From the NCBI GenBank assembly GCA_050184115.1, contig JBFXAQ010000011.1, forward strand, positions 88,692-152,691: a stretch of DNA of 64,000 bases, in the 5' to 3' direction. Positions within the stretch are counted from its first letter, which is position 1. Each line of letters begins with the position of its first letter. The notes under the pieces were generated by a model that made no database searches, had not been told where the DNA came from, and saw only the letters and a list, made by a program, of their open reading frames with translations. Positions 1 to 30,756 of the stretch are shown here, piece by piece. The DNA is from Gammaproteobacteria bacterium (GTDB lineage Bacteria; Pseudomonadota; Gammaproteobacteria; Ga0077536). A program made the position numbers and the translations under genes.

Positions 1-1
1 C

Positions 2-7800: not shown

Positions 7801-8124
7801 GGAATTCGGTGGGGAATTCGGTGACAGTTACTGTATTTCGGCCAGCATCGACCGACCCCACTGCGGGTGCTGCGCGGTAGGCCGACACCGCACCCTTGCC
7901 CTCACGCCCACGATGCGACGGTGCCGTCATTTATGCGGTTCCTGCCGCCGCCCCTCTATCCGGCATTTGGGGACAGTATATGTATGCGTTTATACAGTGA
8001 CTGTCACCGATTTATGGTCACCGATTTTTTTCGCGCTGACACCGTGGTTTTGTCTCTCCGCCGGCGCTGAAGCGGCCGTGGCGCTTATACAGTAACTGTC
8101 ACCTTTTTCGCCCTGTCCCCAAAT
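7801..8124. repeat. Cluster of palindromic REP-like elements (nested/interleaved inverted copies)
   Basis: AATTCGGTGACAGTTACTGTATTTC 7815-7839 (+); ATTTGGGGACAGTATATGTAT 7965-7985 (+); ATACAGTGACTGTCACCGATTT 7992-8013 (-); ATACAGTAACTGTCACC 8087-8103 (-); CTGTCCCCAAAT 8113-8124 (exact reverse complement of 7965-7976). Confidence 0.85.
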
Positions 8125-8170
8125 CCCCGCAAAGCCCCCGAGAGGCCCGCAGCGTCGGCATACATCACCG

Positions 8171-8959
8171 TCAAATCGACTTCGGGAACCCGCCGTCGAC
8201 GTCGAAACTGCTGCCCGTGATGAACGACCCGCGCGCGGAGACGAGGAAGGCGACCAGGCCGGCGACTTCGTCGGGGCGGCCGAAGCGCTTCACCGCGATG
8301 TACTGGTTGGTGAGGTTGGCGAAGACCTCGGCGCGGTCCTTGCCCAGCATCGGCACCATCTGGTCGGCGATGGAATCCCACAAGGGGGTGTGGATGAAGG
8401 CGGGGCACACGCAGTTGATGAGGATGTTGTGTGCGGCGAGCTCGACCGAGAGGGTCTTGGAGAAGGTCAGCATGGCGGCCTTGGCGCTGTCGTAGTCGAT
8501 CAGCATGGGTGGTGGCGTGTGCGCACCCACGGTCGAGATGTTGATGATGCGGCCGCCGCCCTGCTCACGCATCAGCGGCACCACGCCGCGGGTGAAACGC
8601 ACGGTACTGAAGAAATTCACCTCCATGCTCTGCAGCCAGACCTCGTCGTCGCTGTCGAGGCCGTGATCGAGCCACGCCGTGCCGACGTTGTTGACCAGGA
8701 TGTCGATGCGGCCGAGCGCGGCGCGGGCGCGCTCGATGACCATCGGTGCGGCCTCGCGCGTCGCCGCATCCGCCTCGATGGCCTCGACGCGCACGCCATG
8801 GCGCCGCAAATCCGCCGCCGCCGCGTCGAGCCCGGCCTTGCCACGGGCACAGATGGCGACATGGACACCCTCGCGGGCGAGTTCGTCGGCAATGGCGCGG
8901 CCGAGGCCCTGGCTACCACCGGTGATGAGTGCGCACTTGTCGCGTAGACCGAGTTCCAT
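8171..8959 (-). CDS. Short-chain dehydrogenase/reductase (SDR, FabG-like)
   Basis: TGGSQGLG Rossmann motif, DILVNN, YxxxK (YDSAK), 262 aa; AGGGGG RBS-like sequence upstream. Confidence 0.92.
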   Translation of the reverse strand: MELGLRDKCALITGGSQGLGRAIADELAREGVHVAICARGKAGLDAAAADLRRHGVRVEAIEADAATREAAPMVIERARAALGRIDILVNNVGTAWLDHGLDSDDEVWLQSMEVNFFSTVRFTRGVVPLMREQGGGRIINISTVGAHTPPPMLIDYDSAKAAMLTFSKTLSVELAAHNILINCVCPAFIHTPLWDSIADQMVPMLGKDRAEVFANLTNQYIAVKRFGRPDEVAGLVAFLVSARGSFITGSSFDVDGGFPKSI

Positions 8960-9067
8960 CGTGGGTTCCCCCTGGGGTTTGGCGGAAAGGGTTCGACGCT
9001 GCGGATATTACGCGGTCGACGGGGTGCCGGCGGTGCTTGGCGAAATCGTCGCCGGCCTGAGGAGTCC

Positions 9068-9083
9068 GGCGACAGTAACCGTA
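9068..9083 (+). repeat. Degenerate single copy of the palindromic element
   Basis: GGCGACAGTAACCGTA versus consensus GGTGACAGTNACTGTA (2 mismatches). Confidence 0.4.
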
Positions 9084-9200
9084 CGCGACTATCCGCCGAA
9101 AATCGGCGTCGCAGGCTCGCCATGCGGACGGGCCTGGCCTGGCGCCGAGGCCGCAAACACCCCCGTTTCTTGAACGCCGATGACGTTCATACGCTCACGG

Positions 9201-12200
9201 TCAGCATTCTTGAATTCGTTGCAACCGCGCCACCTGGTACGGCGCCTCCATCGCGGCGTAGCCGTCTATGGCGGCGTCGATGAGCGCCCGGCGGGCAGTG
9301 TCGTCGCCCTGGGCGGCGGCGAGTTCCGCCTGCCATTCGGCCAGGGCGGGTTCCAGGACACGGAGTTTCATGCTGGCAATCCATTGCCCGGCCGCGTGCA
9401 GTTCGCGTGCCGCTGCGTCGGCCGCGCTCGCGCCGTCGCGCCGGAGCATCGCGCGCGCGACGACGCTATGGGCGATCGCTTCGAAGTAGTGCCGGCAGGA
9501 GCGCTCGCAGTGGGCGATGACCTGGCGGGCGGTGTCGATGGCAGCGGTGTGGTCGCCGGATTCCATCAGAGCCTCGGCGAGGATGCTGCCGGACCATGCC
9601 GCGTGAACGTGTTCGACGTGATGAAGGTGGCGCTCGAAGGCATCGGCCGCGGCTGCTACCGCGCCGGCGAAGTCGCCGCTGACGAGAGCGGCATAACCAC
9701 GCATCAAGGCGACCAGGGCGACCGTGTTGGCCGGCTCACCTAGGTTGCGTGACCACGCTTCGAATGCCTGGGCGTTGGCACGCAGGGTTTCGGCATCGTG
9801 CGCAATGTGTGCACGCAACGAGTCCGTCAAAAGTGAATAAGCATCGAGCTCCGGCACCTGTTCGCGCTGCGCCTGCCGACGCAACTCCTCGAGCGCGGCC
9901 CTGGCGGCCGCCAGGCGGCCGCCCATGACGAGGAAACCGGCGCGCCACAACAACGCGAAGAGACGCGAGTGGAATACGTGCAGAAGGCCCGTGGCAAGTG
10001 CGGTCGATGGCGCCACCGCAAGTGCCGCATCGCAGGCATCGAGTGCCGCGTCCACCGCCTGCGTCCCAAACGAATCGATAAAGCCGCGAGCGACGTAGGC
10101 CTCGATGACGAGTTCGCGATCGTCTTGTTCGCGGGCGTAATGTTCGGCCGGCTCGAGCGCCGTACTCGCCGCGCGGACGTCGCCGATCGCGGACAACGCA
10201 TGTGCATAAGCCATCGACAGCACATGGCGGTTGCGCACGTCGCCAACGACCGTGGCAAAACGCTGGCCGTCGCATAGAAGGCCTGCAGTGCGCTCGGTGT
10301 CGATACGCAGGCGGTACGAGAATTGGAGCAGGTTCCTGCAGGCAGCGACTCCGAGCGTTGCGGCCTCCTCGTCGATCGGGCCCTCGCGCAGCAACTCGCG
10401 GACATGCTCCCAGTGCATGTGCGCCGCCGGCAGGTCCGTACGCCCGACCCAATCGGCAGCCCGCCAGTGCCACCGCGCCGCGAGCGGCCGCTCGCCGGCT
10501 GCCTGCCAGTGATGGGCGAGCTGTGCGGCCCGTTCGTCGAGCTTGTCGCCGGCCCGGGCCTCGATGGCTCGGGCGACCGCAGCATGCAGCGCGGCGCGCC
10601 GGCTCTGCAGCAGCGACTGGTAAGCCACCTCGTGGGTCAGCGGGTGCTTGAAGGCGTACTCGAACACCGGGTAGAGCGCACGCTCGTAGACGAAGTCACC
10701 GGCCTTGAGCCGTTCGAGCGCGGTGGCGTGCGTGCCGGTGTCGAGGTCGCTGACGGCTTCGAGCAGCGGCCCCGCGAACTCGCGGCCAATCACCGCCGCC
10801 GTCTGCAGCAGGCGCTTGGCCATCTCCGGCAGACGGTCGATACGCGCGGCGAGCACGGCGCGTACGCTGGTCGGCACCACGATGGCGTCGATCGCGCTGA
10901 CCAGGCGGTAGTGCCCCGGTTGGCCGACGAGGTCGCCTGACTCGACCAGCGCGTTGACCACTTCCTCGGTGTAGAACGGGTTGCCCGCCGTCCATTTCAC
11001 GATGCGTGGCACGAGTTCCCCGAGCGAGGCATCGGTCCCGAGCAGGTCACCGAGCAGCTCACCGAGGGCGTCCGCGCCGAGCGGCACCAGCGGCAGTTGC
11101 TGGTAATGCGCCTTGCCGGCGAAGGCCGCCTGGTACTCCGGCCGGAAGTTCAGCACCACCAGGCTCCGCCGCCCCGCCGCCGCCGCCACCAGCTGGTTGA
11201 CGAAGGCGTCGCTGCCGGGGTCGATCCAGTGCAGGTCGTCGATGAGGGTCACGGCGAGCTGACCACCGGCATCCTGGGCTTCGACCAGGCGATGCACCAG
11301 CTCGTAGAGCTGGCGCTGGCGAGCCTCGGCATCCATGCGCGGCGCCGGCTGCTGTGGGTCGGCCACGCCCATGAAATCGAGCAACACCGGCAGCGCGTCG
11401 TGCAGCCTGGCGTCGAGCAGCGCCAGGGTGCCGGCGATCTTCCGGCGCGCCTGCACGGCATCGTCGTCGGCGCGGACGTCGAAGTAGTTCCGGAACAACT
11501 CGAGCACCGGCAGGTAGGGGATGTTCCTGCCGTGCGCCGGGCAGTGCGCCTCGTAGACCGGCAGGCCGCGCCGCCGGCAGTCCTCGACGAACTCGTAGCA
11601 GAGCCGGCTCTTGCCGAGGCCCGCCTCGCCGACGATACCGACCACCTGGCCGTGCCCGCGCCCGGCGTTGGCGAGCGCGGTCTCGAGCACCTGCATCTCG
11701 GCCGCACGCCCGACGAAGCGCGACAGGCCGCGCGCCACTGACACATCCAGGCGGCTGCGCACCGTGCCCGGCGCCTCCAGCTCGAACAGCGCCACGGCCT
11801 CGGCCAGGCCCTTCAGGTTCGTCTCGCCCATCGCGCGCAGGCGGAAATAACCGTGCACCAGGCGCTCGGTCGCACCGCCCAGGTACACGCAGCCCGGCGC
11901 CGCCAGTTGCTCGATGCGCTGCGCGATACCCACCGTCGCGCCCTGCGCGGTGTAGTCCATGCGCAGGTCGTCGCCGATTTTGCCGACTACCACCTCGCCC
12001 GAGTTCAGGCCCAGGCGGAAGCTGAAGTTGAGCCCGTCGGTCAGGCGCAGCTCGTCGGCATAGGTCCGCAAGGCGTCACGCGCGGCGAGCGCGGCGTAAC
12101 ACGCCCGCTGGGCGTGGTCTTCGTGGGCCAGCGGCGCACCGAACAGGGCCATGATGCCGTCGCCGGTGTACTGGTTCACGGTGCCTTCGTAGCGGTGCAC

Positions 12201-12584
12201 GGCCTCGGTCAGGATGGCGAAGTAGCGTTCCAACAGCCGGTGCCAGTGCTCGGGATCCAACTGCTGGGCGAGCTGCATCGAGCCCTGGATGTCGCAGAAC
12301 AGCACCGTCACCTGCTTGCGCTCGCCTTCCAGCGCCGTCTTCGACTGCAGGATCTTCTCGGCCAGGTGCTTCGGCGTGTAGTCGCGCGGCAGGCGTGGCG
12401 CGGCTGAACCGGCCGGCTGCGCTGCTTCGGCGGCTTGCAACGGCGTGCCGCAAGCGCCGCAGAAGTGGTGATCGGGCGGATTCGAGCGAGCGCAGGACGG
12501 GCAGGTGCGTTCGAGGGCCGTGCCGCAGCCGCCGCAGAAGGCGTTCTCCGGCGGGTTATCGCGGCCGCAACGTGCGCAGTTCAT
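9201..12584 (-). CDS. Double zinc ribbon - class III nucleotide cyclase - STAND AAA ATPase - TPR-like protein (paralog A)
   Basis: CxxC/FCxxCG twice at the N-terminus; cyclase motifs VLFCDIQGS and YTGDGIMALFG; Walker A GEAGLGKS; Walker B LIDDLHWID; YAFKHPLTHEVAY; Ala/Leu-rich helical C-terminus; 1127 aa. Confidence 0.93.
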   Translation of the reverse strand: MNCARCGRDNPPENAFCGGCGTALERTCPSCARSNPPDHHFCGACGTPLQAAEAAQPAGSAAPRLPRDYTPKHLAEKILQSKTALEGERKQVTVLFCDIQGSMQLAQQLDPEHWHRLLERYFAILTEAVHRYEGTVNQYTGDGIMALFGAPLAHEDHAQRACYAALAARDALRTYADELRLTDGLNFSFRLGLNSGEVVVGKIGDDLRMDYTAQGATVGIAQRIEQLAAPGCVYLGGATERLVHGYFRLRAMGETNLKGLAEAVALFELEAPGTVRSRLDVSVARGLSRFVGRAAEMQVLETALANAGRGHGQVVGIVGEAGLGKSRLCYEFVEDCRRRGLPVYEAHCPAHGRNIPYLPVLELFRNYFDVRADDDAVQARRKIAGTLALLDARLHDALPVLLDFMGVADPQQPAPRMDAEARQRQLYELVHRLVEAQDAGGQLAVTLIDDLHWIDPGSDAFVNQLVAAAAGRRSLVVLNFRPEYQAAFAGKAHYQQLPLVPLGADALGELLGDLLGTDASLGELVPRIVKWTAGNPFYTEEVVNALVESGDLVGQPGHYRLVSAIDAIVVPTSVRAVLAARIDRLPEMAKRLLQTAAVIGREFAGPLLEAVSDLDTGTHATALERLKAGDFVYERALYPVFEYAFKHPLTHEVAYQSLLQSRRAALHAAVARAIEARAGDKLDERAAQLAHHWQAAGERPLAARWHWRAADWVGRTDLPAAHMHWEHVRELLREGPIDEEAATLGVAACRNLLQFSYRLRIDTERTAGLLCDGQRFATVVGDVRNRHVLSMAYAHALSAIGDVRAASTALEPAEHYAREQDDRELVIEAYVARGFIDSFGTQAVDAALDACDAALAVAPSTALATGLLHVFHSRLFALLWRAGFLVMGGRLAAARAALEELRRQAQREQVPELDAYSLLTDSLRAHIAHDAETLRANAQAFEAWSRNLGEPANTVALVALMRGYAALVSGDFAGAVAAAADAFERHLHHVEHVHAAWSGSILAEALMESGDHTAAIDTARQVIAHCERSCRHYFEAIAHSVVARAMLRRDGASAADAAARELHAAGQWIASMKLRVLEPALAEWQAELAAAQGDDTARRALIDAAIDGYAAMEAPYQVARLQRIQEC

Positions 12585-12745
12585 GCTTCGATCGACCGTG
12601 CATAGGCTTCCCAGCCGGCCACGCCCATCGCGGCCAGCAGTTGGGGCAATTCGGCCAATTCGGTGACAGTTACTGTATTTTCGCGGACGGAAATACAGTA
12701 ACTGTCACCGAATTGGCGGCAGTGGCCGCAGCGTGTGCAGTTCAT
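12581..12745 (-). pseudogene. 54-aa vestigial cyclase-STAND paralog: paralog N-terminus + palindromic doublet + paralog C-terminus, in frame
   Basis: Translates MNCTRCGHCRQFGDSYCISVRENTVTVTELAELPQLLAAMGVAGWEAYARSIEA*. Start resembles paralog A (MNCARCG); end resembles paralog B (LLAAMGVTGWEAYARSIEA). ATGA overlaps with both neighbours. Confidence 0.7.
12654..12717. repeat. Inverted doublet of the palindromic element
   Basis: GCCAATTCGGTGACAGTTACTGTATTT-TCGCGGACGG-AAATACAGTAACTGTCACCGAATTGGC, perfect 27-bp arms. Confidence 0.93.
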
Positions 12746-15700
12746 GCTTCGATCGACCGCGCGTAGGCTTCCCAGCCGGTCACGCCCATCGCGGCCAGCA
12801 GTCGCCGTGCTTCGGCGAGATCCTGCGCCATGGCCTGCGGGTCACCGCGCAGCCGGGCGAGCCCGGCACGTTCCAGCAGGATGAACGGCAGCCACAGCTG
12901 GGCATCCGTGCGTCGAATGATTTCGAGCGCCTCCTCGATCTGCGCTTCGAGCTCGGCGGCGAGATCTGCTTCACCCAGCATGCGCAGCACGCGCGCGCGC
13001 TCGCGACCGTTCGTCATCAACGCGATGTCCAGGCCGTTGGCACGCGCCCGCTCGGTGCCGCGCTCGGCCAGTCGCAATGCTTCCGCAGGCTGGCCCAGGC
13101 CGGCTTTGCACACGGCCTGGTAGCCGTCCATGAGGATGTCCCACTCGCGGCCGGTGCCGCTATCGGCGATGAGCTGGCGTGCACGCGCGAAGAACTCGTC
13201 GGCCTCGATCCATCGTTCCGCGAGGTAGTTCGCCAGCCCGCGCCCGAGCAACGCGAACACCACGTTGTTGTTGGCGCCGAAGCGCTCGGCGATGCGCAAC
13301 GACTCGAGCGACGTGGTTTCGGCTTGCTGCGCATCTCCCAGGCCCCAATACAACCAGGCGCGATCGCTGAGGACATAGGAAGCATCCCAGTGTGAACCGA
13401 TGCGGCGTAGCAGCTCCGAAAGTCGCTTGAAGAACGCATCGAAGTGCGCGGGCGATCCGAGCTGAAAGGCAACGTTGCCACGCAGCGTGAGGGATTCCAG
13501 GTAGGGCCGGTGGCCGAGGATCTCGACGTGGATGGCGTCGTCACTCCCGCCGATCGCGAGAACCTCGTCCAGCACCGCGGCACAGTCGTGCAGGCGGACT
13601 TGCCAGAGCAGTCCGCGCGCAAGGGTATAGCGCGCATGGAGTTGGATCGCTTGGACGGCTTCGGCGTCGGCCAGGGTGATTGCGCGCTTCGCGTGGGATT
13701 CCACCGCTCGCCAGTCGGCCTGCCCGGTCATGAGCCAGGCGTAGGCGGCTTCGATCAAGGATTCGGCTGACCGATCTTCGGCCGACTGCGCCAGCGCGAT
13801 GGCGGTGTGGTAGAGCGCTTCGGACCGGGGCGCCTCGGTGCCGAGGCGATCGAGCGTCGACAGCAACTCGGGGTAGACCTCGAGCAAAAGGCGCGTGGCG
13901 TCCGCGTTGCCGGTGAGCGGCTCCACGAGCGCGCGCGCCTGGTTCCAATGCCGATAGGAGGCGGCGAGGTCGGTGCGCTGGACCCAGCGCGCGGCACGCA
14001 CGTGCCAGGTCGCGGCGACCAGGGACTCGCCGGCCTGTTCGTAGTGGTGCGCGAGGAGGCCAGCCTGTTCATCCGGCCGCGCCGCGACCGCAGCCGCGAT
14101 GGCCTGGGCGATCGCCGCATGGCGCGCGCGGCGGGCGGCTCCGAGTTGCGCATGTAGTGCCACTTCGTGGGTCAGGGGGTGCTTGAAGGCATATTCGGCG
14201 ACCGGGTAGAGGGCCCGTTCGTGCACGAGTTCCGCGGCGAGCAGGTTCGCGAGCGCGCCATCGAACGCGTCGCCGAGATCAGGCAGCACCGTCTCGAGCA
14301 GCGGCCGCGGGAACTCCCGCCCGATGACCGCGGCGGTATAGAGAACCTGCTTCTCGCGCTCGCCGAGGCGGTCGATGCGCGCCGCGAGCAGGGCCTGCAC
14401 GGTGGGCGGGACCTGCAACGATTCCAGCGCCGTGACCAGCTGGTAGGCGCCGCGCGTGCCCGCCAGCGCGCCGGTCTCGAGCAGGGACAACACGATCTCC
14501 TCGGCGAAGAAGGGATTGCCGCCGGATCGTGTGCCGATGAGCACCGGCAGATCGGCGACGGAGGCGTGCGAACCGACCCAGTCCTGCACTAGGGCCGTGA
14601 GTTCGTCCGGCCCGAGCGGCGCCATCGGTAATTGCAGCACCCACGACTTGCGCAGCCAATCGGCCGTGTACTCCGGGCGGAAATTGACCAGCAGCAGGGT
14701 GCGCGTGGTGCTGACCGCCTCAACGATTTGGGTAACGAATTGATCGCTGCCCGGATCGATCCAGTGCAGGTCGTCGATCAGGAGTACCAACGGTGTCGAC
14801 TGCGAGCGCAGGTGGACCAGGCGGCGCAGGAAGGTGAACAAACGCTGCTGACGCACCGCGGGTTCGAGCTGCAACGAAGGTGTGTTCGGATCGGCGACGC
14901 CGAGGAAATCGAGCACGAGCGCGCGATCGTCGGCGAAGTCGTCGTCGAGCAGGGCGAGCTCGCCGGCGATCTTCTGCCGCGCCTCGCGCAGGCCGTCCTG
15001 CTCGGTGATGCCGAACAGGTTGCGCAGGAGCTCGAGCAGCGGCAGGTAGGGGATGGTCTTGCCGTGCGCCGGGCAATGCGCCTCGTAGACCGTGAGCCCC
15101 TGACCGCGGCAGCGCTCGACGAACTCGGCGCACAGGCGGCTCTTGCCGACGCCGGCCTCGCCGACCACCGCGGCCACCCGACCGGTACCGTCGAGGGCGC
15201 GTTGCAGTGCGACGTCCAACGCTTCCATCTCCTCGTCGCGTCCGACGAAGCGCGACAGGCCGCGTGCGCGCGAGGTGTCCAGGCGCGAGCGGTAGCGACC
15301 GGGCGCTTCCAGCACGTGCACGCCGACGGGCGCATCGAGGCCCTTGATCGGCACCGCGCCGAGCGCGCGCAGCGCGAAGTAGCCGTCCACCGCACGGCGT
15401 GTGTGCTCGGACAGGGCGATGCCATCGGCGGGCGCGAGCTGCTCCATGCGTTGGGCCAGCCCGACGGTCTGGCCCTGCGCGGTGTAGTCCATGCGCAGGT
15501 TGTCGCCGATGCGCCCGACCACCACTTCACCCGAGTTCATGCCGAGGCGGAAGGAGAAGTTGACGCCCGGCGATATGCGCAGCTCGTCCGCGTATTCACC
15601 AAGCCGTTCGCGCAGGTGGAGCGCCGCGTAGCAGGCACGCTGGGCGTGGTCCTCGTGCGCGATGGGCGCGCCGAACAAGGCCATGATGCCGTCGCCGGTG

Positions 15701-16110: not shown

Positions 16111-16117
16111 CGCGGCC

Positions 16118-21789: not shown

Positions 21790-22080
21790 GTCGAATGCTT
21801 CCTCGTGCAGGTGCCTGGGGGCGGCTGCCATGCCAGGCACTGTGCCGGCCGATCGTTGAAGGGCGTCGTGAGTCGTGCATGGCGGGTGACACGGAGCCGG
21901 CCGCGCAAGGAAGCCGACCGATCCGAGCGCGGCGTAAACCGGCGTCTCGCGTGACAGGCGGCCTCCCCGCCAGCCTGGCGTCAGCGCGCTAGCCTAACAG
22001 AGCCGCCACCAACCGGCAGCCGGCCTCGCGAGACGCGTGCTAGCATCGCGCCATCGTTCGACATCGAGGGGAGGCAGTCC

Positions 22081-23727
22081 GTGGGCGTACATGGTGGCAG
22101 GCTGGCGGCGCGCGCGCTGAAGAACGCAGGCGTCGAGTGCATCTTTACCCTGAGTGGCGGCCACGTGATGGCCATCTACGACGGCTGCATCGACGAGGGC
22201 ATCGAGGTCGTCGACGTGCGTCACGAACAGGCCGCGGTGCATGCCGCCGACGCCTGGAGCCGCCTGAAGCCCGGCCGCATCGGCTGCGCGGTGCTCACTG
22301 CCGGGCCCGGCGTGACCGACGGCGTTACCGGTGTCGCCAACGCCTGGCGCGCCAACAGCCCGATCCTCGTCATCGGCGGCCAGGGCCCGTTCAGCAACTT
22401 GCGCCGCGGATCGTTGCAGGAGATGGATCACGTCGCCGTGATGAAACCCATCACCAAGTGGGCCGACGCCTGCTACGACACCAAGCGCATCCCCGACTAC
22501 ATCGAGATGGGCATCCGCCACGCGGTATCCGGCAACCCCGGACCGGCCTTCCTCGAGATCCCGATGGACGTGATGATGGGCGAGGCCGAGTGGGCAGACG
22601 TGCGCATGCCCGACATCCGCACCACCCCGCCCATGCGCGTGCCGGCGCCGAGCGACGTCGACGAGGCTCTCGCCATTCTCGCCAAGGCCGAGCGGCCGGT
22701 GATGATGGTCGGCACCAGCGCCAAGTGGTCGAACGCGGCCGCCGCCGTGCAGGGTTTCATCGAGCAGACCCACATCCCGACTTTCGTCAACGGCATGGGC
22801 CGCGGCATGGTGAAACCGGGCACACCTGAGTTGCTCAACCGCGTGCGCAAGGAGGCGATGTCGCAATGCGACGTCTTCGTCTGCGCCGGTGTGCTGCTCG
22901 ATTTCCGCCTCGGCTACGGCAAGACCATTCCGGCCAACGCCAAGATCATCCAGCTCGACATCGAGGACACCCTGATCGGCACCAACCGCTCGCCCGCGGC
23001 GGCGGTGGTCGGCAATCTCGGCGCGACCTTCGATGCCATGCGAACGTCCCTGGCCAAGGGCGGCGCGCCCGACTTCAGCGCCTGGCGCGACCAGCTCGCC
23101 ACGCGCGAAGCGGAACTCGAAGCGGCCTTCGCCAACGAACTGAATTCCGACGAGGTACCGATCGATCCCTTGCGCCTGTGCCGCGAGATCCGCGACTTCG
23201 TCGCCGGCCAGGACCTCATCATCATCGGCGACGGCGGCGACATCGTCGCCCAGGCCTCCAAGGTGCTGCCGGTGCCGGCGGAGAACGGTTGGATGGACCC
23301 GGGCCCGCTCGGCACGCTCGGCGTCGGCATGCCGTTCGCCCTCGCCGCCCAGCTCGCCTGCCCCGACAAGCGCGTGCTGATCATCTACGGCGACGGCGCC
23401 TTCGGCTTGAACGGTTTCGAGTACGACACGGCCGTGCGATTCAACCTGCCCATCGTCGGCATCGTCGGCAACGACGGCGCCTGGGGCCAGATGGTGCGCC
23501 CGCAGGCCGCCACCTACGGCGCCGAGCGGGTCATCGCGACCAAGCTCAACTACACCCGCTATGACCAGATCGTCGCCGCCATGGGCGGACACGGCGAGCA
23601 CTGCGAACGGCCCGAGGAGATCCGCCCGGCACTGGAACGCGCCTTCGCCAGCGGCAAGCCGGCGCTGGTCAACGTCAACATGCGCCAGGACGTCATCACG
23701 GGGATGAAGGGCAGCACCTACGTGTAG
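22081..23727 (+). CDS. ThDP-dependent enzyme (2-hydroxyacyl-CoA lyase / oxalyl-CoA decarboxylase / IlvB-like family)
   Basis: VRHEQAAVHAADA, TAGPGVT, GPLGTLGVGMPFA, ThDP motif GDGAFG...GND; 548 aa. Confidence 0.88.
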   Translation: MGVHGGRLAARALKNAGVECIFTLSGGHVMAIYDGCIDEGIEVVDVRHEQAAVHAADAWSRLKPGRIGCAVLTAGPGVTDGVTGVANAWRANSPILVIGGQGPFSNLRRGSLQEMDHVAVMKPITKWADACYDTKRIPDYIEMGIRHAVSGNPGPAFLEIPMDVMMGEAEWADVRMPDIRTTPPMRVPAPSDVDEALAILAKAERPVMMVGTSAKWSNAAAAVQGFIEQTHIPTFVNGMGRGMVKPGTPELLNRVRKEAMSQCDVFVCAGVLLDFRLGYGKTIPANAKIIQLDIEDTLIGTNRSPAAAVVGNLGATFDAMRTSLAKGGAPDFSAWRDQLATREAELEAAFANELNSDEVPIDPLRLCREIRDFVAGQDLIIIGDGGDIVAQASKVLPVPAENGWMDPGPLGTLGVGMPFALAAQLACPDKRVLIIYGDGAFGLNGFEYDTAVRFNLPIVGIVGNDGAWGQMVRPQAATYGAERVIATKLNYTRYDQIVAAMGGHGEHCERPEEIRPALERAFASGKPALVNVNMRQDVITGMKGSTYV

Positions 23728-23757
23728 CCGTCCCCCGCCGCCCCGTCGGTGGCAGGA

Positions 23758-23876
23758 TAAATCGGTGACATAAATCGGTGACAGTCACTGAATTTTGCGA
23801 GGTACCGCCGCGGGAGCCCCGGGCAGCCGATGACGACCGCTGCGCTTAGAGAAATACAGTTACCGTCACCAGATTT
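23758..23876. repeat. Inverted doublet of the palindromic element with a tandem partial duplication of the outer end
   Basis: TAAATCGGTGACA-TAAATCGGTGACAGTCACTGAATTT (23758-23795) ... AAATACAGTTACCGTCACCAGATTT (23852-23876). Confidence 0.85.
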
Positions 23877-23930
23877 GGTGCTTGTCCCGGGCGCGGGTTG
23901 CGCCGCCCACACGGAGAGGGAACCTGGACC

Positions 23931-25199
23931 ATGAACGCCGCCTCGAGTACCAGCAGCTTCGACGCTGCCCGCATCGCCCCCGTGCGCTACGGCACGCCGG
24001 AACTCGCAACGCTGCTGGCCGCCATCGCCGAGAGCGCCGCGGCCAGCAAGGCCCGTGGCGAAAACCCCTTCGCGGCCATCGACCTCGTGCGCGCCTCGCG
24101 GCTCGGCGCGCTGCGCGTGCCCGCGGCCGAAGGCGGTGGCGGCTGCAGCGTGCGCGAATTCTTCCAGATGCTGCTCGCGCTGGCCGCGGCAGACTCCGAC
24201 GTCGCCCAGATCCTGCGCGCGCACTTCTGGTTCACCGAGGAACGCATGCGCTCGCACGACCCGGCAGTGCGCAAACGCTGGATCGACCGCGTGCTGGCCG
24301 GCGAGATCTTCGGCAACGCCATGGTCGAGATCGGTACCGCGGACGCGGTTGGCAAGTTCGTCACCCGCACGCGCCTCGAGCGCGACGGCGACCACTACCG
24401 ATTGAACGGCACCAAGTACTACTGCACCGGCAGCCTGTTCTCCGACTGGGTGTGGGTGCTGGCCTCGACCGCGGACGGCGAACTGCTCTCGGTGGTGGTG
24501 CCGATCGATCGCGCGGGCGTGACTCTGGAGGACGACTGGGATGGCGTCGGCCAGCGCCACACCGGCAGCGGCACGGGACGTTTCGAGCACGTCGTCGTGT
24601 ACGAGGAGGAGATCCTACGCTCGCCGCTCGATGCCGAGGTCGAGGGTGCAGTCGAGCCCGAGCGCCGGCTGAGCGAGCCCTATCTCGTGGGCCAGTTCGT
24701 CCAGCTCATCCTGACCACGGTCATCGCCGGCAACCTGCGCGCGGCGGCGGCCGAGGCCATCCGCCTGGTGCGCAACCGCAAGCGCACCTTCACCCACGCC
24801 AGCGCCGAGACCGCCGCCGACGATCCGCAATTGCAGGAACTGGTCGGGCGCATCTCGGCGCACAGCCAGGCCGCCGAGGCCCTGGTGCTGGCCGCAGCCG
24901 ACGCCCACCAGGCCGCGCTCGACAGCATCGTCGACGGCCGCGCCGAGTTCGCCCTCGCCCACGAGGCCTCGCTGCGCGCCGCCCAGGCCAAGGTCTTCGT
25001 CGACGAGGTGGCGCCGCGCGCGGCGAGCCAGATGTTCGAGCTCGGCGGCGCCTCGACCACCCTGCGCACGCTCGAACTCGACCGTTACTGGCGGAACATG
25101 GTCACCATCGCCGCCCACAACCCGACTGCGTTCAAGGCCCGCGCCGTCGGCGACTGGCTGATCAACGGCACCGAGCTGCCGATGAACGGGTTCTTCTGA
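23931..25199 (+). CDS. Acyl-CoA dehydrogenase-fold flavin monooxygenase (DszC/SfnB-like)
   Basis: LGALRVPAAEGGGG, LAAADSDVAQILRAHF, LNGTKYYCTGSLFSDW, DDWDGVGQRHTGSGT, LDRYWRN...HNP; GGAGAGG RBS upstream of ATG 23931. Confidence 0.88.
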   Translation: MNAASSTSSFDAARIAPVRYGTPELATLLAAIAESAAASKARGENPFAAIDLVRASRLGALRVPAAEGGGGCSVREFFQMLLALAAADSDVAQILRAHFWFTEERMRSHDPAVRKRWIDRVLAGEIFGNAMVEIGTADAVGKFVTRTRLERDGDHYRLNGTKYYCTGSLFSDWVWVLASTADGELLSVVVPIDRAGVTLEDDWDGVGQRHTGSGTGRFEHVVVYEEEILRSPLDAEVEGAVEPERRLSEPYLVGQFVQLILTTVIAGNLRAAAAEAIRLVRNRKRTFTHASAETAADDPQLQELVGRISAHSQAAEALVLAAADAHQAALDSIVDGRAEFALAHEASLRAAQAKVFVDEVAPRAASQMFELGGASTTLRTLELDRYWRNMVTIAAHNPTAFKARAVGDWLINGTELPMNGFF

Positions 25200-25327
25200 T
25201 TCGGTGACAGTTACTGTATTTCCCGGTGCACGCCACGGGCTAATTCGGTGACAGTTACTGTATTTCGGAGTCAGCGCGAAAGGTGGCGGATTTCATCGGG
25301 AAATACAGTAACTGTCACCGAATTAGC
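25199..25327. repeat. Triplet of the palindromic element (+,+,-) between convergent genes
   Basis: ATTCGGTGACAGTTACTGTATTTC 25199-25222; GCTAATTCGGTGACAGTTACTGTATTTC 25239-25266; GAAATACAGTAACTGTCACCGAATTAGC 25300-25327. Confidence 0.93.
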
Positions 25328-28300
25328 GCGGCCACGCGTGCGGTCCGGGTGCTCATACCGAAGCGTGCGTATTCGTCATGCGCGGTCTGTAACGCCGCGA
25401 GTCGCGCTTGACGATCGCCTTCCCGGCCCGCCAGCTCGGCACGCAACTCGTGCAATTCGCCGGCGTAGAGGCCAAAGCCAGTGCGCTCGAGCAGCGCCTC
25501 GTATTCGTCCAGGGTGTCGTCGATCGCGGCGCGCGGTTCGCCCAGCGCGAGCTGGGCACGGGCCAACAAAGCGTAGGCATGTGGATTCCACACCCCGCCC
25601 GAATCGCGCATGAGCTGGACGCCGGCCCCTGCACTCTCGCGCGCAGCGATGGCGTTACCCAGGCCGAGCTGCGCGCTCGCCAGCAAGGCGTGGAAGCGCG
25701 GCGCGTAGATCTCGCCAGCGCCGAGTTCGCCGATGCGTTCGAGCGCCGCAGAAGCCGTGGCGATAAGCGCCGTCCAGTCTTCGCCGTAGAGAAGGGCGTC
25801 GCACTGGGCGATCGTGGCAACGAGTTCCCACATCACACCCATGTTGCGCGACCAGCGCGAGGTCACTTCGACCCGCATGGCGGCATCTTCACCCCGGCCG
25901 AGTCCGTAGCGGAGATCGATTTCGAGCGCGAGTGAAAAGAAGGCGTTCTCGAGGTAACCGGCCTCGAACGCGGCTGCGCGCACCTGCGGCAACTCGCGCA
26001 GCGCCGCGTCCGGGTCGCGTTGGTGACCCAGGACGTGCAGGCGTGCGTTGCGTGCGGCGAACAACGGGCTGTTGCCCCACACCTCCGCGCCACTGTGCGG
26101 ATCGTTCGGCACCAGGGCGATGACCTCGTCGGCGAGCCGCATGGCTTCCGCCAGCACACCACAGTAGAGGTAGCCCCAGGCGAGCGGCGCACGCGCCCCG
26201 GCGCGCAGCCCGACATCGCCGCTGTCATCGGCAATGCGCACCGCCCTGCCGCAGTATTCGAAATAGTCGCCCCAGGCGTCGTCCACCCAACCCCGTGCGG
26301 TGCCGTAATTGGTATGCAGGATGACGGCGACGTCTGGCACCTCGGCGCGCGCCGCAGCCCGGTTGCCTTCTTCGAACAAAGCGTGGAATTCCTCTTGCCC
26401 GGTACCGGTTCGCGAGGCCAGGTTGAGGGCCCGCGCACAGGCCAGCGCGAGCTGCGCGACCGTCTCGACGCCATCCTCGAGACGCGCCAGATCACGCACG
26501 CGTAACCAGTGGCCGAGCGCAGCTTCGCGATCGCTGCGCTCGCTCCATTCGGCGGCACGCTGATGCCAGTGCGCGGCTGCGCGGGTGTCGCCGGCCGCTT
26601 CGCAGTGATGGGCGATGAGCGCGGCCTGCTCGTCGAGCTTGTCACCGGCCAGGACCTCGACTGCACGGGCGACCGCGCCATGCAACTGTGTACGGCGCGA
26701 TTGAAGCAGCGACTGGTAGGCCACCTCGTGGGTCAGCGGGTGCTTGAAGGCGTACTCGAACACCGGGTAGAGCGCACGCTCGTAGACGAAGTCACCGGCC
26801 TTGAGCCGTTCGAGCGCGGTGGCGTGCGTGCCGGTGTCGAGGTCGCTGACGGCTTCGAGCAGCGGCCCCGCGAACTCGCGGCCAATCACCGCCGCCGTCT
26901 GCAGCAGGCGCTTGGCCATCTCCGGCAGACGGTCGATACGCGCGGCGAGCACGGCGCGTACGCTGGTCGGCACCACGATGGCGTCGATCGCGCTGACCAG
27001 GCGGTAGTGCCCCGGTTGGCCGACGAGGTCGCCTGACTCGACCAGCGCGTTGACCACTTCCTCGGTGTAGAACGGGTTGCCCGCCGTCCATTTCACGATG
27101 CGTGGCACGAGTTCCCCGAGCGAGGCATCGGTCCCGAGCAGGTCACCGAGCAGCTCACCGAGGGCGTCCGCGCCGAGCGGCACCAGCGGCAGTTGCTGGT
27201 AATGCGCCTTGCCGGCGAAGGCCGCCTGGTACTCCGGCCGGAAGTTCAGCACCACCAGGCTCCGCCGCCCCGCCGCCGCCGCCACCAGCTGGTTGACGAA
27301 GGCGTCGCTGCCGGGGTCGATCCAGTGCAGGTCGTCGATGAGGGTCACGGCGAGCTGACCACCGGCATCCTGGGCTTCGACCAGGCGATGCACCAGCTCG
27401 TAGAGCTGGCGCTGGCGAGCCTCGGCATCCATGCGCGGCGCCGGCTGCTGTGGGTCGGCCACGCCCATGAAATCGAGCAACACCGGCAGCGCGTCGTGCA
27501 GCCTGGCGTCGAGCAGCGCCAGGGTGCCGGCGATCTTCCGGCGCGCCTGCACGGCATCGTCGTCGGCGCGGACGTCGAAGTAGTTCCGGAACAACTCGAG
27601 CACCGGCAGGTAGGGGATGTTCCTGCCGTGCGCCGGGCAGTGCGCCTCGTAGACCGGCAGGCCGCGCCGCCGGCAGTCCTCGACGAACTCGTAGCAGAGC
27701 CGGCTCTTGCCGAGGCCCGCCTCGCCGACGATACCGACCACCTGGCCGTGCCCGCGCCCGGCGTTGGCGAGCGCGGTCTCGAGCACCTGCATCTCGGCCG
27801 CACGCCCGACGAAGCGCGACAGGCCGCGCGCCACTGACACATCCAGGCGGCTGCGCACCGTGCCCGGCGCCTCCAGCTCGAACAGCGCCACGGCCTCGGC
27901 CAGGCCCTTCAGGTTCGTCTCGCCCATCGCGCGCAGGCGGAAATAACCGTGCACCAGGCGCTCGGTCGCACCGCCCAGGTACACGCAGCCCGGCGCCGCC
28001 AGTTGCTCGATGCGCTGCGCGATACCCACCGTCGCGCCCTGCGCGGTGTAGTCCATGCGCAGGTCGTCGCCGATTTTGCCGACTACCACCTCGCCCGAGT
28101 TCAGGCCCAGGCGGAAGCTGAAGTTGAGCCCGTCGGTCAGGCGCAATTCGTCGGCATAGGTACGCAAGGCGTCACGCGCGGCGAGCGCGGCGTAACACGC
28201 CCGCTGGGCGTGGTCTTCGTGGGCCAGCGGCGCACCGAACAGGGCCATGATGCCGTCGCCGGTGTACTGGTTGACGGTGCCTTCGTAGCGGTGCACGGCT

Positions 28301-28674
28301 TCGGTCAGGATGGCGAAGTAGCGTTCCAACAGCCGGTGCCAGTGCTCGGGATCCAACTGCTGGGCGAGTTGCATCGAGCCCTGGATGTCGCAGAACAGCA
28401 CCGTGACCTGCTTGCGCTCGCCTTCCAGCGCCGTCTTCGACTGCAGGATCTTCTCGGCGAGATGCTTCGGGGTGTAGTCGCGCGGGACGCGGGCGGGGGC
28501 GGCAGGCGCTTGCGGTGGCGCTGCCGTCACCGGGGTGCCGCAGCTCGCGCAGAAGCGCGCGGCGGGTGGCAGCTCGGTATTGCAGTGGGTGCACTGGGCG
28601 GCGCACGCGGTTCCGCAGTTCGGGCAGAAGCGGGCTCCGTCCGGCAACGAATGCTTACAGGCGGCGCAGTTCAT
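25315..28674 (-). CDS. Double zinc ribbon - class III nucleotide cyclase - STAND AAA ATPase - TPR-like protein (paralog C, mosaic)
   Basis: Start MNCAACKHS at 28674. N-terminus matches paralog B, cyclase/ATPase core matches paralog A, C-terminus is unique. The stop codon lies inside a palindromic element. Confidence 0.92.
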   Translation of the reverse strand: MNCAACKHSLPDGARFCPNCGTACAAQCTHCNTELPPAARFCASCGTPVTAAPPQAPAAPARVPRDYTPKHLAEKILQSKTALEGERKQVTVLFCDIQGSMQLAQQLDPEHWHRLLERYFAILTEAVHRYEGTVNQYTGDGIMALFGAPLAHEDHAQRACYAALAARDALRTYADELRLTDGLNFSFRLGLNSGEVVVGKIGDDLRMDYTAQGATVGIAQRIEQLAAPGCVYLGGATERLVHGYFRLRAMGETNLKGLAEAVALFELEAPGTVRSRLDVSVARGLSRFVGRAAEMQVLETALANAGRGHGQVVGIVGEAGLGKSRLCYEFVEDCRRRGLPVYEAHCPAHGRNIPYLPVLELFRNYFDVRADDDAVQARRKIAGTLALLDARLHDALPVLLDFMGVADPQQPAPRMDAEARQRQLYELVHRLVEAQDAGGQLAVTLIDDLHWIDPGSDAFVNQLVAAAAGRRSLVVLNFRPEYQAAFAGKAHYQQLPLVPLGADALGELLGDLLGTDASLGELVPRIVKWTAGNPFYTEEVVNALVESGDLVGQPGHYRLVSAIDAIVVPTSVRAVLAARIDRLPEMAKRLLQTAAVIGREFAGPLLEAVSDLDTGTHATALERLKAGDFVYERALYPVFEYAFKHPLTHEVAYQSLLQSRRTQLHGAVARAVEVLAGDKLDEQAALIAHHCEAAGDTRAAAHWHQRAAEWSERSDREAALGHWLRVRDLARLEDGVETVAQLALACARALNLASRTGTGQEEFHALFEEGNRAAARAEVPDVAVILHTNYGTARGWVDDAWGDYFEYCGRAVRIADDSGDVGLRAGARAPLAWGYLYCGVLAEAMRLADEVIALVPNDPHSGAEVWGNSPLFAARNARLHVLGHQRDPDAALRELPQVRAAAFEAGYLENAFFSLALEIDLRYGLGRGEDAAMRVEVTSRWSRNMGVMWELVATIAQCDALLYGEDWTALIATASAALERIGELGAGEIYAPRFHALLASAQLGLGNAIAARESAGAGVQLMRDSGGVWNPHAYALLARAQLALGEPRAAIDDTLDEYEALLERTGFGLYAGELHELRAELAGREGDRQARLAALQTAHDEYARFGMSTRTARVAALIR
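26720..28145. repeat. ~1.43-kb direct repeat apparently identical to 10624-12049
   Basis: Offset 16096. Shadow ORFs in the track are identical at both places (e.g. 10696/26792, 11097/27193, 11249/27345). First mismatches seen at 10623/26719 and 12050/28146. Confidence 0.9.
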
Positions 28675-28681
28675 CCCGTCA

Positions 28682-30664
28682 TCATTCCAACCCGGCCTGG
28701 CGCAGCGCGGCGTCGCGGCGTGCATCGACCTCAGGGCGCGCGACGCTGTACAGGCGCTGCACCACCGCGAGCGTCAGCGACGGGTATACCCGCCTGGCCT
28801 CGGCCACCGCGGCGCGCGCGGCGTCGAGCCGGCCGAGCGCCACTTCGTTCAGGGCGACATAGAGATGGCCCCAGTAGTAGTTCGGTCGCGCGGCGACGAT
28901 GCGGCGGGCCGCGACCATGGACTCGGCGTAATTGCCGAGCTCCCACTGGCCGCCGGCGATGTTGTCGTCGGCGAACCAGGCATGGGCGCCGTGAGGATCG
29001 AGTGCGCGGGCACGTTCGCTCGCTGCGAGCGCGGCAGTCGAGTCACCGTTGAGGATGTTCAACCAGCTGAACGCGAGCCACGCCTCTGGTGAGCTGGGGT
29101 TCAGTTCGATGGCGCGGCGGCCAGCGGCGAGGCCCGACGGTACGTCGCCACCCAGCGCCAGGAGCGAGGCCAGCGCAGCATGCGCCATCGGCTCGCGCGG
29201 GTCGACGGCGATGGCCTGGCGCGCGACCTCGATCGCGGCCGCAAGCCACTTCGCCGTGAGCTCTTGCCAGCCGAAATAGACGGCGAACGTTTCGGTGTTT
29301 GCCTGGTGGGCCAAGGCCGCAGCGAAGTCCGGATCGAGCTCCAGCGCACGGGCGAAGTGGGCGCGCGCCTCGGCAAAGGCTTCGCGGGTGTAGCGGTCAT
29401 GGCTCTGCAAGCCGAGTTGGTAGGCGCCCCAGGCGTCGAGGTCGGCCGTGCCGCGCTGACGCGCGCGCTCGGCCTCGGCGCGCGTGACGTCACCGGCGAT
29501 CGAGGCGGCGATGGTCGAACTGATCTCGTCCTGCACCGTAAACATGTCGCTAAGCGCGCGGTCGTAGCTCTTCGCCCACAGGTGTTCGCCGGAGCGGGTA
29601 TCGATGAGCTGGGCGGTGACGCGGATGCGCTCGCCGCCTCGCCGCACGCTGCCCTCCACCAGGTAGCGCGCGCCAAGTTCACGCCCGACCGCCTTCAGAT
29701 CCCGGTTGCCTCCCCGGTACTGGAAGCTCGAGTTGCGCGCGATGACAGGGAAGGCCCGCCAGGCAGAGAGACGAGTGATGAGGTCTTCGGCGAGGCCGTC
29801 GGCGAAGAAGGCCTGCTCGGGATCGGGCGAGAGATTGTCGAATGGCAGCACGGCGATGGCCGGGCGGGACTCGATGTCGTTCATCGGCACGAGCGGGGTG
29901 GCATCTCGTGCAGCGACGAGTGACGCGGCTGCGGGCGGCGCCTCGGTGATCGAGGGCGGCTTCGCCATATGGAAGGCAAGCCCGAGTCCGGCCAGGAGAG
30001 CGGCCACCAGAACGGCCGTCACCGTGGTGCGCAAGGTGGTGGATGCCAGGCCACGCGCCTGCGCGGACCGCCCCTTCCCGCTGCCTGCCGGCGGCTTCAT
30101 GGAGGACAGCCCATCGAGCCCCACAGCACGGATCTCGACCGGTTCGGCGACGCCTTTGAGCACGTAGCTGCCGCAGGCCTGCCACACGATCGGCCGGCGC
30201 AGGCCGCTGTGGTCGATACGCGGCCGCGCGCTGTCGGCGGCGGCTGCCGACAGCAACACTTGTGACGGCCCGGCCAGCGCCGCAATGCGGGCGGCAACGT
30301 CGACCGCGAGCCCGGCGACCTGCACGCGCGCTTCGCCCTCGCCGCCGGGTATCTCGCCGACCTCACCCAGGTGAAGGCCCACCCGCACCGCCGGCAGCTC
30401 GGCATCGTCACCATGGGCCTGCTGCAGGCGCAGGGCGAAATACACGGCGGCACTGGCGGTTTCGAACGTGAGGAAGCAGCCGTCACCGGCCCAGTCGACG
30501 ATGCGGCCGCCGCCGTCCGCGGCGAGCTGGCGCACGAGCGCGCGGTGCCGCGCAATCAAGGTGCCGGCGAACTCGTCACCGTGGCGGGTCTTGAGCGCGG
30601 TCGAATCGACGAGGTCGGTAAAGACCAGCGTTAGAATGCGCGTTCTGGCGGGGTCGTCGGGCAT
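28682..30664 (-). CDS. Class III cyclase - transmembrane helix - TolB-like - TPR protein (copy 2)
   Basis: LVFTDLVDST, WAGDGCFLTF, TM segment VTAVLVAALLAGLGLAF, RPAIAVLPFDNLSPDPEQAFFADGLAEDLITRL, TPRs. Ends AALRQAGLE like copy 1 (AALRQAGLD). ATG 30664 (alternative TTG 30673). Confidence 0.9.
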   Translation of the reverse strand: MPDDPARTRILTLVFTDLVDSTALKTRHGDEFAGTLIARHRALVRQLAADGGGRIVDWAGDGCFLTFETASAAVYFALRLQQAHGDDAELPAVRVGLHLGEVGEIPGGEGEARVQVAGLAVDVAARIAALAGPSQVLLSAAAADSARPRIDHSGLRRPIVWQACGSYVLKGVAEPVEIRAVGLDGLSSMKPPAGSGKGRSAQARGLASTTLRTTVTAVLVAALLAGLGLAFHMAKPPSITEAPPAAASLVAARDATPLVPMNDIESRPAIAVLPFDNLSPDPEQAFFADGLAEDLITRLSAWRAFPVIARNSSFQYRGGNRDLKAVGRELGARYLVEGSVRRGGERIRVTAQLIDTRSGEHLWAKSYDRALSDMFTVQDEISSTIAASIAGDVTRAEAERARQRGTADLDAWGAYQLGLQSHDRYTREAFAEARAHFARALELDPDFAAALAHQANTETFAVYFGWQELTAKWLAAAIEVARQAIAVDPREPMAHAALASLLALGGDVPSGLAAGRRAIELNPSSPEAWLAFSWLNILNGDSTAALAASERARALDPHGAHAWFADDNIAGGQWELGNYAESMVAARRIVAARPNYYWGHLYVALNEVALGRLDAARAAVAEARRVYPSLTLAVVQRLYSVARPEVDARRDAALRQAGLE

Positions 30665-30671
30665 CACGCTC

Positions 30672-30756
30672 AAATTCGGTGACAGTAACTGTATTTCTTG
30701 CGAAATTCCGTCCGCTTCGAACGCATGGCGGAAATACAGTTACTGTCACCGAATTT
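30672..30756. repeat. Inverted doublet of the palindromic element at the right edge of the accessory region
   Basis: AAATTCGGTGACAGTAACTGTATTTC (30672-30697) ... GAAATACAGTTACTGTCACCGAATTT (30731-30756), perfect 26-bp arms. Confidence 0.93.

Follow-up and report, generated by a model that had tools for sequence, protein, structure and literature searches.

Inverted hairpin repeats at the gene junctions of a gammaproteobacterial accessory island are very probably dependent on a TIRYT-type Y1 transposase

In a 64-kb stretch of a gammaproteobacterial genome (assembly GCA_050184115.1, contig JBFXAQ010000011.1; hereafter the window), short inverted repeats are placed between the genes of an accessory island, so that single genes and gene pairs appear to be bracketed by them. 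The locus raises the question of whether these repeats move the genes that they enclose, or whether the repeats themselves are the mobile units and have settled in the gaps between genes. The window corresponds to G000:C11:88692-152691, where G000 is the source genome (5.7 Mb in 18 contigs, a metagenome-type assembly). Our analysis indicates that the units are very probably hairpin repeats that depend on a Y1 HUH transposase of the TIRYT type and that spread recently and locally in the island.

Repeat units and their concentration in an accessory island

The main repeat, which we call family A, is a unit of 25 nt (AATTCGGTGACAGTNACTGTATTTC; letters read at six clusters). Its core, ACAGTNACTGT, occurs 10 times in the window, always within positions 7824-30746, where 0.01 occurrences are expected, and a count of 10 or more was reached in 0 of 100 shuffles. 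The shorter motif GGKGACAG was observed 18 times in the window against 3.7 expected. Scanning with a 22-mer (up to five mismatches) identified 12 family-A units, and three further units have a variant sequence (variant E, GGGGACAGTNTATGTATG, the GGGGACAG variant), giving a total of 15 units in six clusters between 7.8 and 30.8 kb (Table 1). This is in agreement with an earlier note on this DNA, which had counted about 15 copies in six clusters. Reading of the clusters also confirmed its description of mostly inverted doublets with unrelated spacers, which range from ~10 to 110 nt and have no common sequence. In the right-hand 33 kb of the window, the motif scans found neither family-A nor variant-E units, as had been stated; the GGKGACAG matches in the right half, at 44920 and 61325, are bare GGTGACAG 8-mers without the remainder of the unit and are at chance level.

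As the earlier note had also described, the units are located at gene junctions and bracket a monooxygenase-like gene, a cyclase pair and a block of coenzyme A (CoA)-transferase and thiamine diphosphate (ThDP)-enzyme genes. All units lie between genes or overlap final codons only. The TGA within GGTGAC forms the stop codon of the cyclase C gene (25315-28725), and it likewise terminates two genes upstream of the window and one cyclase gene on contig C3. No repeats are present in the divergent promoter gap at 21840-22081.

Each unit is composed of a GGTGACAG head, which is one base off GGGG[AT][CG]A[CG], and a small internal palindrome. Paired inverted units form a long DNA hairpin, and a lone unit, with its weak 5-bp stem, folds poorly. 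The doublets of G000 are 48-99 nt long. Relative to shuffled sequences, four of them fold with z-scores of -8.8 to -13.9, among them the doublet at 12659-12712 (-34.5 kcal/mol, z = -13.9), the inner doublet of the triplet at 25200..25322 (-35 kcal/mol, z = -12.7) and the doublet at 30675..30753 (z = -9.2); the degenerate doublet at 23774..23873 has a z-score of -3.5. At 7800-7827, 12644-12669, 23757-23785 and 8001-8031, the outer 9-13 nt (AATTCGGTG..., GTCACCGATTT...) are partially repeated in tandem next to full units, and comparable copies were seen on contig C8 and beside the Y1 transposase gene described below; such copies could have been left when the outer end was cut or re-inserted.

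Across G000, a 19-mer scan with up to two mismatches detected 36 family-A units at 20 sites on eight contigs. Twenty-four of these units (11 sites) are located within ~44 kb of contig C11 (75398-119441), a region in which uniform scatter would place 0.28 units (Poisson P ~6e-38), and 13 of the 24 match the 22-mer consensus exactly. The motif is thus unevenly distributed, in line with the earlier note. The array extends 13 kb upstream of the window, with six further doublets there. In this dense stretch, family A is present at 11 of 19 gene junctions and a variant unit at one more; the unoccupied junctions are those at which co-directional genes overlap or follow each other closely, together with one divergent promoter gap and three more.

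The island that harbors the array spans 60.5 kb (G000:C11:59207-119730). It is absent from the congeners G003 and G005, in which the flanks (C11:59206 and C11:119735) are separated by 139 and 292 bp, respectively, and from G001, in which they are 2.6 kb apart with other DNA between them. A fourth congener, G004, carries a variant form of the island.

Table 1. Repeat units, repeat-bracketed genes and island boundary in the window (window positions; aa, amino acids; ORF names as used in the text)
Feature	Position	Strand	Context
Island portion in window	1..31039		right end of island; defined by flank adjacency in relatives
Composite cluster	7817..8106		between start of giant GAF-repeat gene and stop of SDR gene
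Family-A unit	7817-7838	+	composite cluster
Variant-E unit	7969-7986	+	composite cluster
Family-A unit	7990-8011	-	composite cluster
Family-A unit	8085-8106	-	composite cluster
Partial GGGGACAG	8113-8120	-	edge of composite cluster
Tight family-A doublet, 10-nt spacer	12659-12680; 12691-12712	+; -	between cyclase B (stop 12742) and cyclase A (start 12584)
Variant-E doublet, GGGGACAGTNTATGTATG arms	20090-20107; 20146-20163	+; -	between enoyl-CoA hydratase and DUF6616 genes
Family-A doublet, diverged arms (2 and 3 mismatches)	23774-23795; 23852-23873	+; -	gap between ThDP-enzyme and acyl-CoA-dehydrogenase-like genes
Family-A triplet	25200-25221; 25244-25265; 25301-25322	+; +; -	first unit begins at stop codon of gene 23898-25199; last supplies TGA of cyclase C
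Family-A doublet, perfect 26-nt arms	30675-30696; 30732-30753	+; -	upstream of 663-aa cyclase/TPR gene; ~290 nt from right edge of island
CoA-transferase/ThDP pair	20593-23727		repeat-bracketed block
Monooxygenase-like gene	23898-25199		repeat-bracketed block
Cyclase C (cyclase, AAA_16, TPR) and 663-aa cyclase/TPR gene	25315..30673	-	repeat-bracketed cyclase pair; 5.4-kb block, units at both ends, absent from G004

A Y1 transposase gene flanked by the same units

The Y1_Tnp domain (PF01797) is found at four places in the G000 genome. One of the genes, C13:110087-110752, is not in the window and has a family-A unit on either side, at C13:109933 (+) and 110829 (-), which bears out the link to Y1/HUH nucleases resembling REP-associated tyrosine transposases (RAYTs; REP, repetitive extragenic palindromic) that the earlier note had drawn from the motif. 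The heads of these flanking units are GGTGACAG or AGTGACAG, again one base off the class motif. The encoded protein has 222 residues, of which 14-123 match PF01797 (E 1e-12). Its alignment with E. coli TnpA_REP (PDB 4ER8) is weak (E 7e-4) and covers the H-x-H and Y-I-x-x-N-P-V stretches, and the NCBIfam model for REP-associated tyrosine transposases, NF047646, gives 63.4 bits, under the cut-off of 80. Beyond the Y1_Tnp domain, a C-terminal helix-turn-helix (HTH) domain (Bac_DnaA_C, HTH_23 or HTH_28) was not found in Pfam at E <= 1e-3, and ~95 C-terminal residues are without a domain match.

The three other Y1 genes (C14:70246, C5:263891 and C3:476454) are each flanked by a GGGG-headed inverted-repeat family of their own. 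These sister families are B (GGGGACAGTWTACTTTT), with 92 units at 48 dispersed sites, C (TCGGGGACAGACCACGATTTCC), with 60 units at 28 dispersed sites, and D (GGGGTCWGACCCC), a palindromic pattern with 296 strand-hits. None of the three is present on contig C11.

Among 41 genomes, family-A units number 57 in G012, 36 in G000, 21 in G003, nine in G005, five in G002, three in G004 and one each in G026 and G027, and 33 genomes have none; a reversed-pattern control gave at most one unit per genome. The closest homologues of the 222-aa protein are encoded in G003 (69% identity), G012 (60%), and G005 and G016 (58% each). In G003, the gene (C243:32700-33359) has a unit on each side, at 32617 and 33369, and belongs to a 14-kb cluster with at least 15 of the 21 units of this genome. 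In G012, the gene (C29:44982-45635) adjoins a doublet at 44863-44909, and 28 of the 57 units are on its 137-kb contig. A partial gene flanked by units is present on C303 of G002. The best homologue in G001, which has no units, is 34% identical, and that in G004, with three units, 54%. The presence of the enzyme gene in the densest clusters of G003 and G012 suggests short-range spread.

In G012, a 37-kb stretch around the Y1 gene (C29:30330-67282) contains eight doublet sites, with perfect 19-nt cores, start-to-start distances of 28-29 nt and unrelated loops of 7-8 nt. In G003, two wide-spaced family-A doublets stand in tandem with a period of ~239 bp (C243:39187-39655), which looks like a tandem duplication of a doublet together with its flank. 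A query of metagenome contigs with the monooxygenase-like protein gave a best match of 66% identity, too distant for a closer relative of the source genome.

The association extends to homologues from many phyla. For the 48 of 80 fetched loci that had both flanks available, GG[GT]G[AT][CG]A[CG] was present in inverted orientation on both flanks in 26, on one flank in 16 and on neither in six, with a chance rate of ~0.1 per flank (an estimate, not a shuffle). The G012 homologue is flanked by the exact GGGGACAG head.

These features correspond to the TIRYT/TIRtron class, described as RAYT-like genes with terminal inverted repeats that contain a GGGGWSAS motif and, like REPs, are arranged in dimers or clusters (Di Nocera, De Gregorio & Rocco 2013, PMC3733652); excerpts of a later classification equate the class with TnpA_REP subclass 2.1, characterized by a C-terminal HTH domain (Quentin et al. 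2018, PMC6006769). As in that class, a Y1 HUH homologue is flanked by inverted repeats with a GGGG[AT][CG]A[CG]-type head, the motif being exact in the G012 and variant-E units and one base off in GGTGACAG; single units, dimers and clusters are found elsewhere in moderate copy number, and there is no GTAG tag. In contrast to the class, two thirds of the units lie in one 44-kb accessory stretch, an excess at the edges of insertions and deletions (indels) was measured (see below), and Pfam finds no C-terminal HTH in the 222-aa protein. By the class description, rather than by published family lists, the family thus fits, as judged from sequence, in TIRYT/TIRtron (TnpA_REP subclass 2.1).

Better-known REP systems are less similar. 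In the REPIN-RAYT system, as far as it is covered by excerpts of the original reports (Bertels & Rainey 2011, PMC3116915; Bertels et al. 2017, PMC5581495), inverted doublets likewise form hairpins and a single-copy Y1 gene has its own repeats; clusters are reported to adjoin the RAYT gene in P. fluorescens SBW25, as they do here in G003 and G012. However, the doublets described here have unrelated spacers of variable length and are not copied whole, there are tens of copies rather than hundreds, the enzyme scores under the equivalog cut-off, and neither GTAG nor CGTC is present in the 25-nt unit. The E. coli REP/BIME repeats and their TnpA_REP (PDB 4ER8; excerpts of PMC3333891, PMC3479197 and PMC8266576) share the fold family of the enzyme, but here the GTAG guide is lacking, the units have another sequence and far fewer copies are present. 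The distribution also differs: the available part of PMC3733652 confines the abundant GTAG repeats to core regions, and that of PMC3390384 describes strain-specific DNA of Pseudomonas as 'REP deserts', whereas the repeats analyzed here are concentrated in strain-specific DNA. In the portions of the literature at hand, we found no description of such repeats in islands or as gene movers.

Elements of the IS200/IS605 group have hairpin-bearing ends and are moved by a Y1 HUH enzyme in single-strand 'peel and paste' transposition, which leaves the target site unduplicated. The repeat family is similar in these respects. In G000, G003 and G012, flanking direct repeats are within the control range at 43 of 44 sites. 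The units differ from such elements in that they are non-autonomous and only 25 nt long, with a weak 5-bp stem, and the enzyme gene is single-copy. The exceptional site among the 44 is the doublet at 12659-12712, which is surrounded by a 93-nt direct repeat (12563-12655 and 12724-12816, 88% identical). This repeat is the overlap junction of cyclase B and cyclase A, duplicated on either side of the doublet and single-copy in G004; duplication of the junction may be the sole route by which an insertion into overlapping genes can survive. A long target duplication as a general signature of the family was ruled out, as it was observed at one of the 44 sites.

Gene junctions and indel edges compared with a congener

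An alternative that we regard as distinctly unlikely is an active gene-mobilising system, in which the Y1 enzyme or another recombinase moves whole genes at the repeats and the repeats cause gene gain and loss. One observation that speaks for it comes from indel edges. For 12-kb windows centered on all eight non-island family-A loci, colinear blocks in G004 were listed, together with those of control loci chosen at random from the sister families B (four) and C (three, because two of four picks shared one window). Indels of 1 kb or more were located at the repeat in 8 of the 15 loci (family A, 4/8; family B, 1/4; family C, 3/3) and at 12 of ~159 other neighboring junctions, a denominator that is approximate and assumes one junction per kb (Fisher's test, p = 3e-5). 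With a threshold of 300 bp, the values are 9/15 and 14/~159, and one of the nine corresponds to the repeat cluster's own length. The association between repeats and indel edges is real and common to all three families. The extra DNA is on the G000 side in six of the eight cases, with the repeat just inside one edge, and has no colinear counterpart in five congeners (E 1e-50 or 1e-60); its matches elsewhere are to the transposase gene itself, on the G003 cluster contig, and to sequences at paralogue level (68-71%).

Four individual cases point in the same direction. The block formed by cyclase C and the 663-aa gene, with a unit at each end, is missing from G004. The difference caused by the DUF6616 gene, which G004 also lacks, lies right at the outer end of the conserved variant-E doublet. 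The cognate Y1 gene itself sits in a G000-specific segment that, relative to G004, ends no more than ~3 nt from the outer end of a unit. Finally, at G004:C4:310884-312845, a degenerate family-A doublet and a flavin adenine dinucleotide (FAD)-oxidase gene lie together between 133-bp direct repeats (89% identical) of the target, which correspond to the 3' end of a luciferase-like gene.

Other features of the same comparison argue against mobilisation of genes. Among the six extra segments, the opposite edge has a clear repeat in one only; one of the other five has a weak family-B-like match (score 11, control maximum 10). Within the island, there is no enrichment: relative to G004, 5 of the 12 occupied junctions and 2 of the 7 free ones are breaks (p = 0.66). 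The enrichment at boundaries of variable genes that the earlier note had proposed to test is thus seen genome-wide but not inside the island. The sulfotransferase indel between G000 and G004 and the left-hand difference of the island, in which 9.5 kb is replaced by 2.4 kb, are both without a repeat. The FAD-oxidase gene has a different location in the two genomes, with the doublet on opposite sides of it, and the repeat cluster of G003 has no DNA match to the C11 island. Moreover, junctions of new DNA may just be permissive landing sites.

In G004, the island is inverted on contig C4 and 80-91% identical, with core flanks of 84-90% identity, and gene adjacency is kept at 7 of the 11 family-A junctions: 146-aa gene/beta-lactamase, luciferase-like gene/cyclase D, cyclase D/MFS, MFS/response regulator, giant gene/SDR, cyclase A/cyclase B, and ThDP/monooxygenase-like gene. 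At 10 of the 11 orthologous junctions of G004, no family-A remnant was detected above background; eight junctions are blank, two have matches that are variant-E units, and one has a real match, beside the FAD gene. The G004 counterpart of the gap at 7817..8106 contains a variant-E-like unit and no family-A unit, and the doublet at 23774..23873 is absent from the corresponding 46-bp gap. Both variant-E sites are conserved in G000 and G004. Because G004 keeps the adjacency without a family-A remnant, the repeats are dispensable for the arrangement. Either the G000 line acquired the family-A repeats, or G004, in which the cognate enzyme is lacking, lost them cleanly; the relatives are different species (74-91% identical, in draft assemblies), between which events are not finely orderable.

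Integron attC sites and pdif modules are imperfect inverted repeats with variable centers that lie between the genes of accessory arrays, and the earlier note had likened the repeats to a system of this kind that adds and removes genes, rather than to passive REPs. This proposal is unsupported in both its parts. None of the 28 island ORFs scanned with Pfam contains a recombinase or integrase domain (three ORFs had no match at E <= 1e-3), so that neither an integrase nor a Xer-type gene is found in the island. Its genes are on both strands, G004 keeps the array without the sites, and flanking duplications are lacking at all but one of the 44 sites mentioned above.

The gene content of the island, called by ORF and GC3 (G+C at third codon positions) heuristics, comprises acetone-carboxylase-like genes with a sigma-54 activator, oxidoreductases, a beta-lactamase-fold protein, an MFS transporter, a response regulator with a 4073-aa GAF-repeat protein, a sulfotransferase, CoA-transferase and ThDP enzymes, four cyclase/AAA_16/TPR proteins and two cyclase/TPR proteins. 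The acetone-carboxylase-like alpha, beta and gamma genes and the sigma-54 activator (GAF, AAA+, HTH_8) at C11:64300-73790 form the 9.5-kb block that G004 does not have at this place. The 4073-aa ORF occupies 2-7705 (-) of the window and continues upstream to G000:C11:84175; it has at least 14 GAF domains, is preceded by a small response-regulator gene, and differs in length between G000 and G004 by ~2.6 kb through internal repeats.

The cyclase genes are partly mosaic. Cyclase A and cyclase C share 99.5-100% identity over ~1.4 kb that encode the cyclase and AAA_16 domains (10.6-12.4 and 26.7-28.5 kb), the first 200 nt of cyclase C resemble cyclase B (90%), and its C-terminal 1.6 kb is only ~50% identical to cyclase A, a pattern that points to recent gene conversion among receptor paralogues, as far as sequence identity can indicate it. 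The 663-aa protein (28682-30673) is 74% identical to the single G004 orthologue of the 658-aa gene (16118-18094) and 55% identical to the 658-aa protein of G000 itself; these partner genes, too, are therefore either recombinant or paralogues that were sorted differently. Four further cyclase/AAA_16 genes form a second tandem array at G000:C3:447009-463506, in which the fourth gene shares its stop codon with the sole family-A doublet of that contig. Across the genome, a family-A unit lies within 33 nt of the 3' end in 4 of 9 cyclase/AAA_16 loci. A role of the units as operator sites for cyclase-STAND proteins was considered and dropped because units flank Y1 genes in unrelated contexts.

Origin of the repeats and their relation to gene turnover

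The explanation that we consider very probable is the one given at the outset, namely that the units are TIRYT-dependent hairpin repeats of the Y1 HUH transposase. The enzyme would bind and cut single-stranded units and move or copy them in the manner of IS200/IS605 elements, without target duplication. The units would settle in the spaces that separate transcription units, frequently right at a gene's end or inside its final codons, and family A would have spread recently and locally within the G000 lineage. The genes look bracketed because family A fills 11 of the 19 junctions in 46 kb of the island, and the bracketing would then be a by-product of nearly saturated gaps between transcription units. 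We take the co-location with indel edges to reflect insertion into, or tolerance at, the junctions of newly gained DNA, and possibly deletion prone to occur at hairpins, and not a mechanism dedicated to cassettes. The sequences show the family with its hairpins, the link to the Y1 gene across several genomes, the missing units at orthologous junctions of G004 and the missing target duplications; that the enzyme mobilises the units, that it acts on single strands, and why the units cluster are inferred.

Several observations weigh against this explanation. The cognate gene is at least 130 kb from the dense cluster even if the contigs abut, and no remnant of a Y1 gene was detected within the island (tblastn, best E 0.89); simple local hopping from the present copy of the gene therefore does not account for the cluster. 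Co-occurrence of enzyme and units is imperfect, as G016, G017 and G020 encode homologues of 54-58% identity and have zero units of the family-A pattern. The strong indel-edge excess is not expected of a purely passive repeat. In addition, spacers are unrelated even between identical arms, a misfit to the REPIN model in which whole doublets are copied, and at one orthologous doublet (G000 C1:150432 and G004 C2:443712), the arms are kept and the spacer is unalignable, which could indicate selection for a host function.

This last point leads to a further alternative, in which the repeats are kept by the host as transcript-end stabilisers, insulators or protein-binding sites and are selected but no longer mobile. 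It would also account for the five G012 doublets shown, in all of which identical stems enclose unrelated loops of 7-8 nt, and for the preference for gene ends and avoidance of the divergent promoter gap. Nevertheless, we consider it very unlikely. The genes of G004 manage without the repeats at seven junctions, the Y1 gene has units on its flanks in several genomes and unit counts track its presence, and none of the hairpins in the six clusters of the window is followed by a run of T residues. A comparison of positions 7000-31500 with Rfam gave four matches, all sub-threshold, three to microRNA families on the hairpins and one to a small nucleolar RNA family inside the SDR gene (8387-8453). 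The arms stay and the spacers differ, both in the loops of G012 and in the orthologous doublet of G000 and G004; together with the other fine features of the units, this points to the arm, rather than the doublet, as what is conserved or copied. Derivation from miniature DDE-type transposons, or an assembly artefact at short repeats, is suggested by the terminal inverted-repeat geometry of the doublets and by the 18-contig metagenome-type assembly, but is extremely unlikely given the lack of target duplication at nearly all sites and of a common interior, the match of the arms to the flanks of Y1 genes, the adjacency confirmed by G004 at seven junctions, and three read runs of one study that contain 94-97% of the sampled words of 22000-31500 (a measure of content, not contiguity).

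Participation of the Y1 enzyme and its repeats in gene turnover, with repeat-headed segments, or repeat-bounded ones such as the cyclase C block, copied, inserted or deleted as units, is in our estimation unlikely. It would resemble one-ended capture by other HUH elements, and the repeat-saturated island would in that case serve to reshuffle genes for receptors and enzymes.

In summary, the repeats of this island very probably belong to a class of transposase-associated repeats that is widespread, with at least 599 matching stretches, at least 581 of which encode a relative of the enzyme, and whose effects on genomes have barely been studied. Their distribution is opposite to the picture obtained in Pseudomonas, in which REPs mark old and stable DNA, as the repeats described here are found in strain-variable DNA and at indel edges. 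If this association is causal, hairpin repeats together with a domesticated-looking transposase would constitute a route of gene turnover; if it is not, the repeats would be a marker of recently changed junctions in this lineage.

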